Positions 3,066-51,156 of a DNA stretch of 64,000 nt are shown one piece after another. The translations under genes and the position numbers were made by a program. The first letter of the stretch is position 1, and each line of letters starts with the position of its first letter. The notes beneath the pieces are model-generated. The model was not told the DNA's origin. It saw nothing but the letters and a program-made list of their open reading frames with translations, and made no database searches. The stretch lies in NCBI RefSeq assembly GCF_048403405.1, contig NZ_CP183129.1; one strand, written 5' to 3'. The stretch is from Escherichia coli (lineage in GTDB: Bacteria > Pseudomonadota > Gammaproteobacteria > Enterobacterales > Enterobacteriaceae).

Positions 3066-4157
3066 ATGCGTTTTCTGCGCCGACCAATATCGCTGCGCCA
3101 ACGGCTGATATTGACCATTGGGGCCATTTTGTTGGTGTTTGAGCTGATCAGCGTCTTCTGGCTATGGCATGAAAGTACCGAGCAGATTCAGCTGTTTGAG
3201 CAGGCGCTACGCGACAATCGCAACAACGATCGCCACATCATGCGTGAGATCCGCGAGGCGGTCGCCAGCCTGATCGTCCCCGGCGTCTTTATGGTCAGCC
3301 TGACGCTATTTATCTGCTATCAGGCGGTACGCCGCATCACCCGCCCGCTGGCGGAGCTGCAAAAAGAGCTGGAAGCGCGCACCGCCGACAACTTAACGCC
3401 CATTGCCATTCACAGCGCCACCCTCGAAATCGAAGCGGTGGTTTCGGCGTTAAACGATCTGGTCAGTCGCCTGACCAACACGCTGGATAACGAAAGGTTG
3501 TTTACCGCTGACGTCGCGCACGAACTGCGAACGCCACTGGCGGGGGTGCGTTTGCATCTGGAACTGCTGGCGAAAACGCATCACATTGATGTAGCACCGT
3601 TAGTGGCACGGCTTGATCAGACGATGGAGAGCGTCTCCCAGCTGCTGCAACTGGCGCGTGCCGGACAGTCATTTTCTTCCGGTAATTATCAACATGTAAA
3701 ACTGCTGGAAGATGTCATTCTCCCCTCGTATGACGAACTCAGTACCATGCTCGACCAGCGACAGCAAACCCTGCTATTGCCAGAGAGCGCCGCCGACATC
3801 ACCGTTCAGGGTGATGCAACCCTGCTGCGGATGTTATTGCGAAACCTGGTAGAAAACGCCCATCGTTACAGCCCGCAAGGCAGCAACATTATGATTAAGC
3901 TGCAAGAAGATGGCGGAGCGGTCATGGCCGTTGAAGATGAAGGACCGGGTATTGATGAGAGTAAATGCGGGGAGTTGAGTAAAGCGTTTGTACGTATGGA
4001 CAGCCGTTATGGCGGGATTGGTCTGGGGTTAAGTATTGTCAGCCGCATTACACAGTTGCATCACGGGCAGTTTTTCCTGCAAAACCGGCAAGAGACTTCC
4101 GGCACGCGGGCCTGGGTACGGCTGAAGAAAGATCAGTACGTGGTAAACCAGATATAA
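3066..4157 (+). CDS. basS: two-component sensor histidine kinase
   Basis: ORF-track TTG start 3057 trimmed to ATG 3066 (MRFLRRPISL...), 363 aa; HAMP, H-box (ELRTPLA) and ATPase motifs. Confidence 0.88.
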   Translation: MRFLRRPISLRQRLILTIGAILLVFELISVFWLWHESTEQIQLFEQALRDNRNNDRHIMREIREAVASLIVPGVFMVSLTLFICYQAVRRITRPLAELQKELEARTADNLTPIAIHSATLEIEAVVSALNDLVSRLTNTLDNERLFTADVAHELRTPLAGVRLHLELLAKTHHIDVAPLVARLDQTMESVSQLLQLARAGQSFSSGNYQHVKLLEDVILPSYDELSTMLDQRQQTLLLPESAADITVQGDATLLRMLLRNLVENAHRYSPQGSNIMIKLQEDGGAVMAVEDEGPGIDESKCGELSKAFVRMDSRYGGIGLGLSIVSRITQLHHGQFFLQNRQETSGTRAWVRLKKDQYVVNQI

Positions 4158-4222
4158 AGAAAGCTGCTGACCACCAGCACGCTGAACACGGTAGTTAAAC
4201 TTTCATAAACACGGTTTTTCAT
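4133..4222 (-). CDS. pmrR: small membrane peptide PmrR, 29 aa (MKNRVYESLTTVFSVLVVSSFLYIWFTTY)
   Basis: Hand-translated minus-strand ORF: ATG at 4222-4220, stop TGA at 4135-4133; GGAGG Shine-Dalgarno 5-9 nt upstream; overlaps last 25 nt of basS on the opposite strand; below the 60-aa ORF-track cutoff. Confidence 0.7.
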   Translation of the reverse strand: MKNRVYESLTTVFSVLVVSSFLYIWFTTY

Positions 4223-4226
4223 TGCA

Positions 4227-4252
4227 CTCTCCTCCGTTAACCTGGAGGAGAG
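4227..4252. other. 9-bp stem inverted repeat ctctcctcc-N8-ggaggagag immediately upstream of pmrR
   Basis: Read directly; on the minus-strand RNA one arm is the pmrR Shine-Dalgarno GGAGGAGAG; no T-run on either side. Confidence 0.35.
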
Positions 4253-4292
4253 TATGCGCGTCAGAGATTAAGTGAACCTTAAGACTTCAATT

Positions 4293-6975: not shown

Positions 6976-9200
6976 TATCGTTCTGCCGTGAAAAGTGTTT
7001 GAATATCATCGCGTAACAGCTGAGCGTCGGTGTAAATCCAGCTGTGAGTCATCACAGCCTGCTGCAATTGCTGCTGCATCAGCCTGACCACCGATTCATT
7101 TTGTTGACGCAGAGCCAGGCTTTCGCGTAAACGCGTCTGTAATTCCGTCAAACATGAAGCGAACTCAGCGAAAAAAGTATTCATGCCTGCCGTAACAGAT
7201 TCATCGACCTGCTCTGCCAGAACTTTAGCCATTTGTTGGCAATAAAGATCGACTTCTGCGCTTAATGCTCGTTGCAACACACTGTAATCAACCGTCTCTG
7301 TCGGGGATTTCTCATTTCCCCGTCCCCAGTCGGGCTGATTCAACCAGCGCGAAAAAGTCTCACGCACAACGCCTAAACGCGTGCTCTGCTCGTCCGTTGC
7401 TTCCTGGCGCGAAATGACTTCACTGAACAGCTGGCGAGTGTTGAAGTGGGGAACTGCGCCGTGAAAAACAGGAAAATGAAACCCAGGACGAAACCCTGAC
7501 TCGCTCAATTCCATTTTGACTTGTTGCTCAATGGGGCGAATAACATCGGTTAACACCCGGCAAAGGGTGGATTCCAGCTCGGCAAAACGCAGCGTAAAGT
7601 CGCGACTGATGGTGTTCTGCGCCGTCTGTAACAGTGTCTCACAGCGGGTACGAATCTCGCTTAACGGCTCCGAATCATCCTGAAACAAGGCGGCTAACTG
7701 CGCATTCACCGCATCTTGCTGTTGACGCAGAAAGTAGTTGGCGGAGGTCAGGGCCAGCTCGATTTCATGTTTAATTTCGCCGCTCACCTGCGCCTGATTG
7801 AGTTGCAATAGCTGCAAACTTTCTTCGATCTGATGGATATTTTGCCGCAATTGTTCACAAGCGACGTTTAACCCGTGCGCACGAAAATCCAGGTATTCCC
7901 GCGCCTGCTGCCCGTAATTCAACAGTTTATGCGCGGCAGATCGCAGAGCATACAACGAGGCGTTAGTGTAAGCGGCATGAAGCAACGCCTGAATTGGCTT
8001 GGCGAACAGCGAATCTTCCCACAACTGATCGGCAGCATGACGAATATGTTCGAGGTCCGCCAGATCGGCATGACGCCAGCGCCTGCCGAGCGCGGCATGG
8101 GCAAAATCTTCCACCCAGCGTTGTTGCTCTGGCGCGGGTAACTTACCGTTGTTGGCTAACTCATGGCGCGCCCGATTCGCCAGGTAGCCCCACATCGACG
8201 ACACTGGAAATATCTGCTGTGGCGTAATACAGCCTTTCATCAGCGTCCCGGAAATCAGTGCCCGCACCTGGTCGGCGTCGTCACTGTTACGATCCTGTTG
8301 ATCGAACTTATTGACCAGCACATACAGCGGCACCGATTGCCCCACCGCCAAAATCGCCTCACGGACCTCTTCATCGGAGATCGATTTCAGTTGCGTATAA
8401 TCCAGCACCGCCAGTACCGCCGAGGCGCGTGCCAGCTGCTGGTTAAGCATTTTTTGCAGATGCGGTTGCCCGGCTTCATTTGGCCCGGGGGTATCCAGTA
8501 ACGTCAACTGACCGGGATAACTCTCCAGCCCCGCCAGATGGACAAACTCCACTTCAATCACGGGAATATGCTCAATGGCGGCGTAAGCAGAAAAAGGAAA
8601 ATCGACGTCCAGCGCCTTCGCCAGTCGCACCAAATCATTCAAACTTTTCAGACAATGAAAAATAGGCTGGGCACCCAGATAATATTTTTCGAAAGCGACG
8701 CCATTTTCGATCCGCTGCATAAGCGCACGCATATCTTTATCTATTTCCAGCACATCGGTCAGATGCTTAATATCGCAATCACGCAGGCGCTGTTGTAATT
8801 TTTGAATTAAACAATCGATTGGCGCGACATGTGAAAAATGCAGTACCGGTTCCTTTTGCCCGGGCGTATGGCGAATAAGCGTCGGCAGCGCAGTCATTGG
8901 GCGATTACGATTAGGCAGAACCTCCGTACCAACAATGGCATTAATGGTGGTTGATTTCCCTGCTTTCATGGTACCGACAATCGCCAGCACCATTTCCAGT
9001 CGGGAAATTTTACGCAACTCATTATTCAGCATCGCGTGACGTTCGGCGATATTAGGCTGACTCCAGGGTAAAGCCAGTTGTGGCGCATCGTCTCCGGGGA
9101 CAGAGAGAGGCATTTTTTCCAGTAACTGCAACTGTTGGCGAGAAAGCTGTAACAGGCGTTCAGCCTCCTGACTTAACTCATACAGGGTCTGTGTGTACAT
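6972..9200 (-). CDS. yjdA: bacterial dynamin-like GTPase
   Basis: 742 aa; P-loop GTMKAGKSTTINAIVGTE and long coiled-coil regions; K-12 yjdA/crfC position. Confidence 0.85.
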   Translation of the reverse strand: MYTQTLYELSQEAERLLQLSRQQLQLLEKMPLSVPGDDAPQLALPWSQPNIAERHAMLNNELRKISRLEMVLAIVGTMKAGKSTTINAIVGTEVLPNRNRPMTALPTLIRHTPGQKEPVLHFSHVAPIDCLIQKLQQRLRDCDIKHLTDVLEIDKDMRALMQRIENGVAFEKYYLGAQPIFHCLKSLNDLVRLAKALDVDFPFSAYAAIEHIPVIEVEFVHLAGLESYPGQLTLLDTPGPNEAGQPHLQKMLNQQLARASAVLAVLDYTQLKSISDEEVREAILAVGQSVPLYVLVNKFDQQDRNSDDADQVRALISGTLMKGCITPQQIFPVSSMWGYLANRARHELANNGKLPAPEQQRWVEDFAHAALGRRWRHADLADLEHIRHAADQLWEDSLFAKPIQALLHAAYTNASLYALRSAAHKLLNYGQQAREYLDFRAHGLNVACEQLRQNIHQIEESLQLLQLNQAQVSGEIKHEIELALTSANYFLRQQQDAVNAQLAALFQDDSEPLSEIRTRCETLLQTAQNTISRDFTLRFAELESTLCRVLTDVIRPIEQQVKMELSESGFRPGFHFPVFHGAVPHFNTRQLFSEVISRQEATDEQSTRLGVVRETFSRWLNQPDWGRGNEKSPTETVDYSVLQRALSAEVDLYCQQMAKVLAEQVDESVTAGMNTFFAEFASCLTELQTRLRESLALRQQNESVVRLMQQQLQQAVMTHSWIYTDAQLLRDDIQTLFTAERY

Positions 9201-9937: not shown

Positions 9938-9955
9938 TTGTATTGTGATCGGTAA

Positions 9956-10031
9956 GCCGGATAAGGCGCTCGCGCCGCATCCGGCAACGATGCCGACTGC
10001 CTGATGCGACGCTGACCGCGTCTTATCAGGC
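9956..10031. repeat. REP (repetitive extragenic palindrome) pair
   Basis: gccggataaggcgctcgcgccgcatccggc and gcctgatgcgacgc...gcgtcttatcaggc read directly between phnA and phnB. Confidence 0.75.
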
Positions 10032-10096
10032 TTCCCTCTCATCTGTATAAATTTCGAACTACACTTAAGTGGCTTCTCTTAACTGAGGTCACCATC

Positions 10097-29796: not shown

Positions 29797-31944
29797 ATGA
29801 AAAAAGTCGTCACGGTTTGCCCCTATTGCGCATCAGGTTGCAAAATCAACCTGGTCGTCGATAACGGCAAAATCGTCCGGGCGGAGGCAGCGCAGGGGAA
29901 AACCAACCAGGGTACCCTGTGTCTGAAGGGTTATTATGGCTGGGACTTCATTAACGATACCCAGATCCTGACCCCGCGCCTGAAAACCCCCATGATCCGT
30001 CGCCAGCGTGGCGGCAAACTCGAACCTGTTTCCTGGGATGAGGCACTGAATTACGTTGCCGAGCGCCTGAGCGCCATCAAAGAGAAGTACGGTCCGGATG
30101 CCATCCAGACGACCGGCTCCTCGCGTGGTACGGGTAACGAAACCAACTATGTAATGCAAAAATTTGCGCGCGCCGTTATTGGTACCAATAACGTTGACTG
30201 CTGCGCTCGTGTCTGACACGGCCCATCGGTTGCAGGTCTGCACCAATCGGTCGGTAATGGCGCAATGAGCAATGCTATTAACGAAATTGATAATACCGAT
30301 TTAGTGTTCGTTTTCGGGTACAACCCGGCGGATTCCCACCCAATCGTGGCGAACCACGTAATTAACGCTAAACGTAACGGGGCGAAAATTATAGTCTGCG
30401 ATCCACGCAAAATTGAAACCGCGCGCATTGCGGACATGCACATTGCACTGAAAAACGGCTCGAACATCGCGCTGTTGAATGCGATGGGCCATGTCATTAT
30501 TGAAGAAAATCTGTACGACAAAGCATTCGTCGCTTCCCGTACAGAAGGCTTTGAAGAGTATCGTAAAATCGTTGAAGGCTACACGCCGGAGTCGGTTGAA
30601 GATATCACCGGCGTCAGCGCCAGTGAGATTCGTCAGGCGGCACGGATGTATGCCCAGGCGAAAAGCGCCGCCATCCTGTGGGGCATGGGTGTAACCCAGT
30701 TCTACCAGGGCGTGGAAACCGTGCGTTCTCTGACCAGCCTCGCGATGCTGACCGGTAACCTCGGTAAGCCGCATGCGGGTGTAAACCCGGTTCGTGGTCA
30801 GAACAACGTGCAGGGTGCCTGCGATATGGGCGCGCTGCCGGATACGTATCCGGGATACCAGTACGTGAAAGATCCAGCTAACCGTGAGAAATTCGCCAAA
30901 GCCTGGGGCGTGGAAAGCCTGCCAGCGCATACCGGCTATCGCATCAGCGAGCTGCCGCACCGCGTAGCGCATGGCGAAGTGCGTGCCGCGTACATTATGG
31001 GCGAAGATCCGCTGCAAACTGACGCGGAGCTGTCGGCAGTACGTAAAGCCTTTGAAGATCTGGAACTGGTTATCGTTCAGGACATCTTTATGACCAAAAC
31101 CGCGTCGGCGGCGGATGTTATTTTACCGTCAACGTCGTGGGGCGAGCATGAAGGCGTGTTTACTGCGGCTGACCGTGGCTTCCAGCGTTTCTTCAAAGCA
31201 GTTGAGCCGAAATGGGATCTGAAAACGGACTGGCAAATCATCAGTGAAATTGCCACTCGTATGGGTTATCCGATGCACTACAACAACACCCAGGAGATCT
31301 GGGATGAGTTGCGTCATCTGTGCCCGGATTTCTACGGTGCGACTTACGAGAAAATGGGCGAACTGGGCTTCATTCAGTGGCCTTGCCGCGATACTTCAGA
31401 TGCCGATCAGGGGACTTCTTATCTGTTTAAAGAGAAGTTTGATACCCCGAACGGTCTGGCGCAGTTCTTCACCTGCGACTGGGTAGCGCCAATCGACAAA
31501 CTCACCGACGAGTATCCGATGGTACTGTCAACGGTGCGTGAAGTTGGTCACTACTCTTGCCGTTCGATGACCGGTAACTGTGCGGCACTGGCGGCGCTGG
31601 CTGATGAACCTGGCTACGCACAAATCAATACCGAAGACGCCAAACGTCTGGGTATTGAAGATGAGGCATTGGTTTGGGTGCACTCGCGTAAAGGCAAAAT
31701 TATCACCCGTGCGCAGGTCAGCGATCGTCCGAACAAAGGGGCGATTTATATGACCTACCAGTGGTGGATTGGTGCCTGTAACGAGCTGGTTACCGAAAAC
31801 TTAAGCCCGATTACGAAAACGCCGGAATACAAATACTGCGCCGTGCGCGTCGAGCCGATCGCCGATCAGCGCGCCGCCGAGCAGTACGTGATTGACGAGT
31901 ACAACAAGTTGAAAACTCGCCTGCGCGAAGCGGCACTGGCGTAA
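29797..31944 (+). CDS. fdhF: formate dehydrogenase H, selenocysteine-containing molybdoenzyme (in-frame UGA at codon 140 is read as Sec)
   Basis: ORF-track ORFs 29797-30216 and 30265-31944 are in the same frame, separated only by TGA 30214-30216 with a SECIS hairpin directly downstream; N-terminal 4Fe-4S Cys motif CPYCASGC; joined length 715 aa. Confidence 0.93.
30214..30258 (+). other. UGA-Sec codon plus SECIS stem-loop
   Basis: tga cacggcccatcggttgcaggtctgcaccaatcggtcggtaatgg read directly; matches the fdhF SECIS as I recall it. Confidence 0.85.
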
Positions 31945-48796: not shown

Positions 48797-50146
48797 TTAG
48801 ATAGCCCAGCCACCCGCATAGAAGGTCACCAGCGCCACAGCGATAACGACCGTACCGATGTTCAACTTGCGCCATTCGCCGGAAACCAGACGACCAATCA
48901 CCAGAGTCGCGAAGCCGATCATGATGCCTGTTACGATGTTACAGGTCAGCACGATGAATACCGCCGTAACCAGACCCGCCATCGCATCAACAAAATCAGC
49001 AAAGTCGATTTTCGCCACGTTACTCAGCATCAGCAGGCCAACGTACATCAGCGCCGGAGCCGTTGCATACCCCGGAACGAGGTAAGAGAGCGGAGAGAGG
49101 AACAGAATCAGCAGGAACAGCACGCCAACGGTGATAGCCGTCAACCCGGTTTTACCGCCCGCCGCCGTACCCGCCGCAGACTCGATGTATACCGCTGCCG
49201 GAGCTGCACCCACCAGGCCAGAGAAAACGCTGCTCATGGAGTCAGTGGTCAGTGCTTTACCGCCGTCGATGATCTGCCCATCTTTATCCAGCAGGTTCGC
49301 CTGACCGGCGACGGCGCGGATAGTTCCGGTGGCATCAAATACTGCCGTCATCACCAGCGCCAGAACGCTTGGCAGGACTACAGGATTCAGCGCGCCCATA
49401 ATGTCCAGGCTGCCAATCAGTGAATTGCCGTTTTCATCGCTCAATGAAGGCATGGCGAAAACGCCGGAGAAATGGACGTTAGGATCGAAGATCAAACCGA
49501 CAATTGAGATACCGATAATGGTCAGCAGAATGCCACCAGGGACTTTCAGTTTTTCCAGGCCGATGATCACCGCCAGACCTACCAGTGACATAATCACCGG
49601 GAAGGTCGCGAAATCACCCAGCGCAACGGGCAGACCATCAAGCGGGTTTTTAATCACCAGACCGACACCATTAGCGGCAATGAGCAGCAGGAACAGACCG
49701 ATACCGATCCCCGTGCCGTGCGCCACACCGTGCGGCAAGTTGCGCAAAATCCAGCTACGGATACCCGTGGCAGAAATTACCGTAAACAGTACACCCATCA
49801 GGAACACGGCACCCAGCGCGACAGGTACGCTAATATGTTGCCCCAGCACCAGACTGAATGCGGTAAACGCCGTCAGGGAGATGGCGCAACCAATCGCCAA
49901 CGGCAGATTAGCCCACAGACCCATCACGATAGAACCGAGTCCGGCAACCAGACAGGTCGCAACGAAAACTGCCGCAGGCGGGAAGCCTGCTTTACCCAAC
50001 ATGCCTGGAACGACGATAACCGAGTAGACCATCGCCAGAAATGTTGTTAACCCGGCAACCACTTCCTGACGGACAGTGCTTCCACGTTGTGAAATTTTAA
50101 ACCAGGCGTCGAGTGAACCGCCGGTACGCGCTGATGGCGTAGACAT
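48797..50146 (-). CDS. ghxP: guanine/hypoxanthine permease (NCS2 family)
   Basis: 449 aa; recognised as K-12 yjcD/ghxP. Confidence 0.88.
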
Positions 50147-50260: not shown

Positions 50261-50275
50261 AAGCAAACGTTTAGC
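50261..50275. promoter_or_regulatory. PurR-box-like operator upstream of ghxP
   Basis: AGCAAACGTTTAGCT resembles the PurR consensus ACGCAAACGTTTGCGT; two weaker copies at 50303-50317 and 50401-50417. Confidence 0.5.
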
Positions 50276-50562
50276 TCCGCGCATACAAAACGGGTGGTAA
50301 AAAAAGCAAACGATTATCCGGCGATCATAGCGGCTTTTTCAACCGAAGTTTGCTGCTTTTTTCTCTTTTATTGTCTTGACGATGAAAAACCAGGCAATTG
50401 ATGCGCAAACGTTATCGTCGATGCGCAAGATTGCAGCGTTATCGAGCCGCATACCGTTCAGGATTGCGATAAAAAATCGTCTGAGATGACAAAAATATTG
50501 CGGCTAAAAAGTGTACTTTTACACTGGCGAAGAAACGCCGGTGACATACAATTAAAGCATCA

Positions 50563-50702
50563 ACACCAACCGGAACCTCCACCACGTGCTCGAATGAGGT
50601 GTGTTGACGTCGGGGGAAACCCTCCTGTGTACCAGCGGGATAGAGAGAAAGACAAAGACCGGAAAACAAACTAAAGCGCCCTTGTGGCGCTTTAGTTTTG
50701 TT
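50563..50702 (+). ncRNA. ryjA: candidate small RNA convergent with and overlapping the soxR 3' end (position of K-12 ryjA)
   Basis: Plus-strand intrinsic terminator (stem aaagcgcc / ggcgcttt 50673-50693, then uuuaguuuuguu) with no plus-strand CDS upstream; 5' end is a guess from the ~140 nt length I recall for RyjA. Confidence 0.4.
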
Positions 50703-51156
50703 CATCTTCCAGCAAGCGTGCGCCGGTACCTTCTTCTCCTAAGCGGTCGCCCGGGTTACGCAATGGGCAATCACTGCGCGAAAGGCAGCCACAACCAATA
50801 CATCCGTCCAGCTCGTCACGCAGCGCCACTAAGGTATGAATGCGCCGATCCAACTCTTCTCGCCATTGGGACGAAAGCTGTTTCCACTCTTTCGCACTTA
50901 ATGTATGCCCTTCGGGCAACACGCCAAATGCTTCACGAATGGTCGCCAGCGGAATGCCAATACGCTGAGCAATTTTGATGATTGCGACATATCGCAACAC
51001 ATCACGTTTATATCGCCGCTGATTGCCACTATTACGGATACTGCTAATCAACCCTTTGCTTTCATAGAAATGCAGCGCCGATACCGCCACACCGCTGCGT
51101 TTTGCCACTTCGCCGGGGGTTAGCAGCGCTTTAATGCGGGGTAATTTCTTTTCCAT
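50692..51156 (-). CDS. soxR: redox-sensing MerR-family regulator with 2Fe-2S cluster
   Basis: 154 aa; C-terminal [12 protein letters not shown] cluster motif. Confidence 0.95.

Follow-up and report, generated by a model that had tools for sequence, protein, structure and literature searches.

The interval between ghxP and the 3' end of soxR, in a stretch of 64,000 nucleotides of the Escherichia coli contig NZ_CP183129.1 (hereafter the window), raises the question of whether the plus strand encodes a transcript of its own, and of how such a transcript and soxR, which is read towards it from the minus strand, are both brought to an end. An earlier note, made from the letters alone, had proposed a small RNA of about 140 nt at 50563-50702, taken to be the K-12 ryjA RNA, with no plus-strand coding sequence upstream and with a 3' end that is antisense to the 3' end of soxR at a bidirectional terminator. 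The lack of a plus-strand coding sequence upstream is confirmed, the neighbour ghxP (48797-50146) being encoded on the minus strand.

The whole window was scanned against Rfam, which returned a match to sraL (RF01408, "sraL Hfq binding RNA") at 50559-50699 on the plus strand, covering positions 1-142 of the 142 of the model (153.3 bits for a gathering score of 39, E = 1.1e-34). Alignment to the coordinates of K-12 ryjA (b4459, NC_000913.3 4277926-4278066), which the note had named beforehand as a check, gave 141 identical positions out of 141. The ryjA ncRNA of the K-12 MG1655 record lies opposite soxR (4277469-4277933) with an overlap of 8 nt, as it does in the window, and the gene order pdeC-soxS-soxR-ryjA-ghxP-yjcE is common to both; no difference was found between the two in sequence, length (141 nt), soxR neighbour, overlap, promoter or terminator. 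Judged by its sequence, the gene at 50559-50699 is SraL (RyjA) itself, beyond mere resemblance. The identification given in the note was thus correct, and its span was approximately right, the true ends (from the Rfam match and the K-12 annotation) being 50559 and 50699, a shift of 4 nt for the former and of 3 nt for the latter. As a discovery this carries little weight: SraL/RyjA is already known as a curated Rfam family with published regulators and targets, and its K-12 annotation dates from 2001. The transcript has been detected by Northern blot (Silva et al. 2013, PMC3753932, citing Argaman 2001 and Wassarman 2001), and RNA-seq of E. coli showed RyjA at full length (Maes et al. 2016, PMC5389530); given the identity with K-12, SraL is presumably expressed in the present strain as well. 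The best overall explanation of the locus, to which we assign a probability of about 0.95, is a 141-nt trans-acting sRNA with a sigma-S-type promoter and a terminator hairpin shared with soxR.

In RefSeq/PGAP records of E. coli strains identical to the window, e.g. NZ_CP128875.1 (L002), soxR is annotated without sraL/ryjA, and ryjA was annotated only in the curated K-12 record (NC_000913.3, L001). A missing PGAP entry was considered as an annotation gap, and hence as no evidence against an sraL gene.

The sequence upstream of the gene fits a promoter of the sigma-S (RpoS) type. The putative -10 hexamer TACAAT (50547-50552, i.e. -12 to -7 relative to the annotated start A50559) is followed by TAA (to 50555), giving an extended -10 of the sigma-S type whose discriminator is A/T-rich (TAcAcTTAA in the consensus of 98 enterobacterial loci), and is preceded, with a 17-bp spacer, by a weak -35-like CTGGCG (50524-50529; acTGGcaAa in the same consensus). 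The ungapped alignment of these 98 loci gave the promoter consensus acTGGcaAa...TAcAcTTAAagTgTCAgC at a fixed distance from the start. CTGGCG was not flagged as sigma-70-like in the consensus scan, only 3 of its 6 bases matching. Silva et al. 2013 (PMC3753932) describe the sraL promoter as RpoS-type, its -10 being conserved, its discriminator A/T-rich and its -35 degenerate, and they report that SraL is nearly absent and its promoter-lacZ activity lost in a Salmonella rpoS mutant, and that the sraL promoter is enriched more than 100-fold in RpoS ChIP in Salmonella. E. coli K-12 RyjA is also among the listed RpoS-regulated, starvation-induced sRNAs (bioRxiv 10.1101/2024.06.20.599902). A near-perfect palindrome, AGTGTAC-TTT-TACACT (50510-50525), adjoins the -35 of sraL; it is probably fortuitous, since position 50513, a G in the window, is A in K-12 and other genera do not retain the palindrome.

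Conservation was examined within E. coli and across species. No substitution relative to K-12 was found in 50539-50763, for 46 differences (about 1.7%) in the flanking 2.6 kb. Of 5,426 complete E. coli genomes, 5,420 carried the sRNA, and in 5,400 its identity was 99% or higher, a level that the surrounding 1 kb reached in only 751 genomes. A REP-type repeat origin of the hairpin was discarded, the sRNA query being placed at a median of one site per E. coli genome (maximum two). For the cross-species survey, an exact-pattern scan with two internal motifs, applied to one genome per bacterial species, gave 102 loci, of which 99 were enterobacterial and covered more than 20 genera. The remaining loci, L026 (Thermoproteota), L032 (Gemmatimonadetes) and L064 (Actinopolyspora), were left out as chance matches to the pattern with no soxR within 800 nt downstream; L035 (Citrobacter sedlakii), which also gave no soxR match within that distance, was retained because sraL is present. 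The 90 distinct homologues had a mean column identity of 78% when aligned, and RNAalifold predicted 33 pairs for them, with compensatory double changes in 7. These were mostly located in the 5' helix (helix 1; A-U/G-C at 4-57 and 7-54, G-C/A-U at 5-56, C-G/U-A at 6-55), and the third hairpin also showed compensatory changes. The window sequence forms all the helices of the Rfam model, namely the 5' helix, two internal hairpins and the terminator hairpin.

The hairpin that the note had placed at 50673-50693 is real and larger than claimed: the perfect palindrome AAACTAAAGCGCC-CTTGT-GGCGCTTTAGTTT occupies 50668-50698, with a 13-bp stem (50668-50680 / 50686-50698) and a loop at 50681-50685, and the span given in the note is its inner 8-bp core with the loop. 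This structure was recovered by the terminator scan, by folding and in the homologue alignment, and can form on both strands. On the plus strand the consensus scan classed it among the terminator-like sites: 13 base pairs, of which 6 are G-C, enclose a loop of 5 nt, and TGTTCATCTT forms the tail. Folding of the 46 nt at 50660-50705 gave -20.5 kcal/mol (z -5.1) for the plus strand and -22.2 kcal/mol (z -6.1) for the minus strand, and none of 200 dinucleotide shuffles was as stable in either case. The 3' ends of the two RNAs read ...GGCGCUUUAGUUUUGUU (plus) and ...GGCGCUUUAGUUUGUUUUCC (minus), and, as had been claimed, a U-rich tract follows the hairpin on both strands (UUUAGUUUUGUU on the plus strand and UUUAGUUUGUUUUCC on the minus strand). 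The minus-strand site was absent from the scan output because only 4 of the 8 nt that follow the complete 13-bp stem are U, for a rule of 5 T in 8; it fell narrowly below this rule because part of the U-run was counted as stem.

That the hairpin terminates sraL is supported by the annotated K-12 3' end and by the published description of the terminator, the "same Rho-independent terminator" being reported for SraL in all species (PMC3753932). It most likely terminates soxR as well, as is suggested by the equal strength of the minus-strand hairpin and its U-run, by the presence of no other structure downstream of soxR, and by the conservation of the arrangement. The proposal of a bidirectional terminator thus stands, with a strong hairpin and a U-run on each strand, its use by soxR being read from the sequence. 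In the literature, no mapping of the soxR or ryjA 3' end was found, nor any naming of the pair as a bidirectional terminator. The soxR coding sequence (50692-51156, minus strand; SoxR of 154 aa) is convergent with sraL, and its TAA stop codon (50692-50694) is inside the 3' arm of the hairpin (50686-50698), so that both the overlap of hairpin and stop codon and the antisense position of the two 3' ends (annotated overlap of 8 nt) were as the note had described.

The stem of the terminator was more conserved than structure alone needs. ACUAAAGCGCC / GGCGCUUUAGU was invariant across the 90 distinct homologues (more than 20 genera), with a loop varying from 4 to 8 nt, a freely covarying 5' helix and a compensatory stem change in only two lineages (Pseudocitrobacter and Shimwellia); locus extraction had required GGCGCTTT in the 3' arm, a filter which only 1 of 99 loci failed. 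The coding of SoxR cannot explain this invariance, since it is just as strict at loci where 10-150 nt separate the stem from the end of soxR. A constraint from termination on both strands, recognition by a protein (Hfq, PAP I or PNPase) or a role in pairing are possible causes.

The position of soxR relative to the sRNA was then compared between genomes. Almost all of the 99 enterobacterial loci have a convergent soxR directly downstream of sraL, and the other neighbour of sraL varies (ghxP in the window, STM4267 in Salmonella). The gap between the sRNA and the soxR stop was measured for 96 loci, taking the last T of the run behind the stem as the sRNA 3' end and defining the hairpin by motif anchoring. 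An overlap of 1 nt or more is seen in 45 of the 96 loci; the gap is 0-14 nt in 23, 15-59 nt in 17 and at least 60 nt in 11, the largest gaps reaching about 150 nt, plus one of 509 nt. A stop codon within the stem (8-nt overlap) was found only in Escherichia and Citrobacter amalonaticus, where SoxR has 154 aa and ends in ...EDEQN; in most other genera it has 152 aa and ends in ...LLEDD or ...LLEED. It is the terminator's 3' arm that supplies both additional codons and the stop (50692-50700 in the window). In many Klebsiella, Raoultella, Lelliottia and others, the soxR TAA is read from the U-tail of the sRNA, with a 2-nt overlap. In Salmonella, where the neighbour is STM4267, 31 nt separate the predicted 3' end of the sRNA from the soxR stop (L072), which in the window lies in the stem. 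The tight shared terminator is thus the common state and not an obligatory one. What the survey adds to the known sRNA is the near-universal convergence of sraL and soxR in the Enterobacteriaceae, the lineage-specific character of the stop codon in the stem, and the unusual invariance of the stem.

Several loci depart from the common arrangement. Between 80 and 150 nt separate sraL and soxR in some Citrobacter, Cedecea, Enterobacter and Lelliottia (L016, L020, L024, L053, L055, L070, L031), and the spacers of L016 (5295-5600) and L020 (minus strand, near 8733-8874) resemble ERIC- or REP-type palindromic insertions. The gap of 509 nt belongs to Enterobacteriaceae bacterium 89 (L077). In Citrobacter sedlakii (L035), sraL has no soxR within 1.1 kb downstream, and in Enterobacter sp. 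EA-1 (L059) the 3' end of soxR is apparently frameshifted, its frame entering sraL by 31 nt.

Other readings of the locus were weighed against that of a trans-acting sRNA with a shared terminator. The hairpin could be the terminator of soxR only, with an ordinary intergenic sequence in the 110 nt upstream and no functional plus-strand transcript, as the RefSeq/PGAP annotation of identical strains, which lists soxR alone, would have it. This is contradicted by the full-length Rfam match far over its threshold and the annotated K-12 ncRNA, by a conservation exceeding that of the flanks, with covarying helices and a conserved promoter at a fixed distance, and by the detection of the RNA in published Northern blots and RNA-seq, and we give it practically no credence. 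Alternatively, the plus strand could encode a small protein and its transcript serve as a small mRNA or have a dual function; one example would be the 26-codon ORF that is present within the transcript (ATG at 50594 to TAA at 50672-50674; MRCVDVGGNPPVYQRDREKDKDRKTN). However, an ATG ORF of at least 10 codons occurs in only 37 of 90 homologues, with differing starts and frames, the column of the window ATG is ATG in only 10 of 90 (CTG in 31 and TTG in 23), and one-nucleotide indels occur inside the ORF span, so that a coding function appears very unlikely. The plus-strand ORFs at 50486-50674 and 50601-50978 were rejected as genes, not being conserved.

A third possibility adds to the role in trans: SraL might also act in cis on soxR, through an RNA duplex, RNA polymerase collision or a ribosome at the stem, and so couple soxR to the sigma-S-driven sraL. 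The 3' ends of the two RNAs are complementary over about 40 nt, including their loops (CUUGU and ACAAG), the soxR stop is inside the stem with an annotated overlap of 8 nt, the convergence persists in nearly all 99 enterobacterial loci though the other neighbour changes, the sequence of the stem is invariant beyond structural need, and collision-assisted bidirectional termination has been described for convergent E. coli genes. Against this, the literature search gave no experimental report of SraL regulating soxR, and both 3' ends are held in very stable hairpins. Moreover, the sRNA stops short of soxR in 51 of the 96 loci, and gaps of 60-509 nt are tolerated in 11, those of L016 and L020 resembling REP/ERIC-type insertions. 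Since these 51 loci have no overlap and wide gaps are tolerated, tight overlap is not required, which argues against an essential cis-antisense role, and an action in cis is considered as decidedly unlikely. More specifically, sraL transcription or the SraL RNA might tune the termination, stability or read-through of soxR, and a ribosome terminating on soxR may open the hairpin; we regard this version as decidedly unlikely too. If it were true, the coupling would tie superoxide sensing to the general stress response, and the invariance of the stem would fit.

Under the preferred reading of a trans-acting sRNA with a shared terminator, transcription would start at A50559 from the sigma-S-type promoter (TACAAT then TAA, with a weak -35), and SraL would accumulate in stationary phase and under stress, as demonstrated in Salmonella and K-12 and as the identity with K-12 leads one to expect here. 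It would end at the 13-bp hairpin with its G+C core (50668-50698) and U-run, with a 3' end near 50699; on the opposite strand the equally stable hairpin followed by UUUGUUUU would terminate the soxR mRNA just past its stop codon. One DNA element would thereby insulate sraL and soxR from mutual read-through, as the sequence and the conserved convergence suggest. From the roles established in Salmonella, the mature SraL would be stabilised by Hfq and would lower trigger factor by pairing with the tig leader, and its pairing with the rho leader would block premature Rho-dependent termination.

These steps correspond to published observations. SraL accumulates in stationary phase and is less stable without Hfq, and it represses tig in Salmonella, as established with compensatory mutants (PMC3753932). 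Two reviews (PMC6582626, PMC12360218) describe a pairing of SraL with the rho leader that overlaps a putative rut site, an antitermination that protects the rho mRNA. RyjA is polyadenylated, and its full-length form builds up in an E. coli pcnB mutant (Maes et al. 2016, PMC5389530). The Hfq co-immunoprecipitation of Sittka et al. had no sraL reads at early stationary phase, a result that is neutral on Hfq binding.

The segment GUGCUCG (50586-50592, plus strand) is a candidate for pairing with tig, as it is the complement of CGAGCAC, which spans -29 to -23 in the tig leader of K-12, 11 nt upstream of the Shine-Dalgarno sequence, in agreement with the published description. A 7-mer complementarity to this leader is at chance level (245 of 500 shuffles were equal), a second 7-mer (50571-50577) also matches it, and GUGCUCG is not kept in Klebsiella, Buttiauxella or Kosakonia. 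In the rho leader, the scan for perfectly complementary k-mers gave one 7-mer only, far upstream. With RNAduplex, full-length SraL formed pseudo-duplexes along its whole length with the K-12 leaders of tig and rho; these did not surpass those of shuffled controls and were discarded.

As in known bidirectional intrinsic terminators, the element is a perfect palindrome with a G+C core and A-rich / T-rich flanks, located between convergent units; it differs from the usual ones in that one of the units is an sRNA and that the stop codon of the protein gene is inside the stem. For the overlapping bidirectional sites of Ju et al., a dependence on polymerase collisions and a lack of resemblance to intrinsic terminators are reported, whereas the sraL/soxR element has the look of a canonical intrinsic terminator on both strands. 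Among co-listed RpoS-regulated E. coli sRNAs, SdsR and GadY are, like SraL, induced in stationary phase via sigma-S. GadY is likewise transcribed towards a regulator gene whose 3' end it overlaps, and acts in cis on the overlapping gadX-gadW mRNA. SraL differs in that no cis role on soxR has been reported for it, its validated targets, tig and rho, being trans-encoded.

Elsewhere in the window, three GCAAACG(A/T)T boxes occur upstream of ghxP (50263-50274, 50306-50317 and 50405-50416), which from their appearance we presume to be PurR operators. The middle one (50306-50317) overlaps the -10 GATAAT of the sole predicted minus-strand sigma-70-like promoter (50342..50313); over the whole window the motif shows no enrichment (32 matches for 25 expected). 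The Rfam scan also returned a full-length match to the enterobacterial sRNA STnc630 (RF02052) at 4126-4291 on the minus strand (183 bits for a gathering score of 55), a match to naRNA4 (RF02564), a REP-derived nucleoid-associated RNA, at 9955-10032 on the plus strand (87.5 bits for 59.5), and a match to the selenocysteine insertion element SECIS_2 (RF01988) at 30209-30263 on the plus strand (87.1 bits for 70), which implies a selenoprotein gene at that position.
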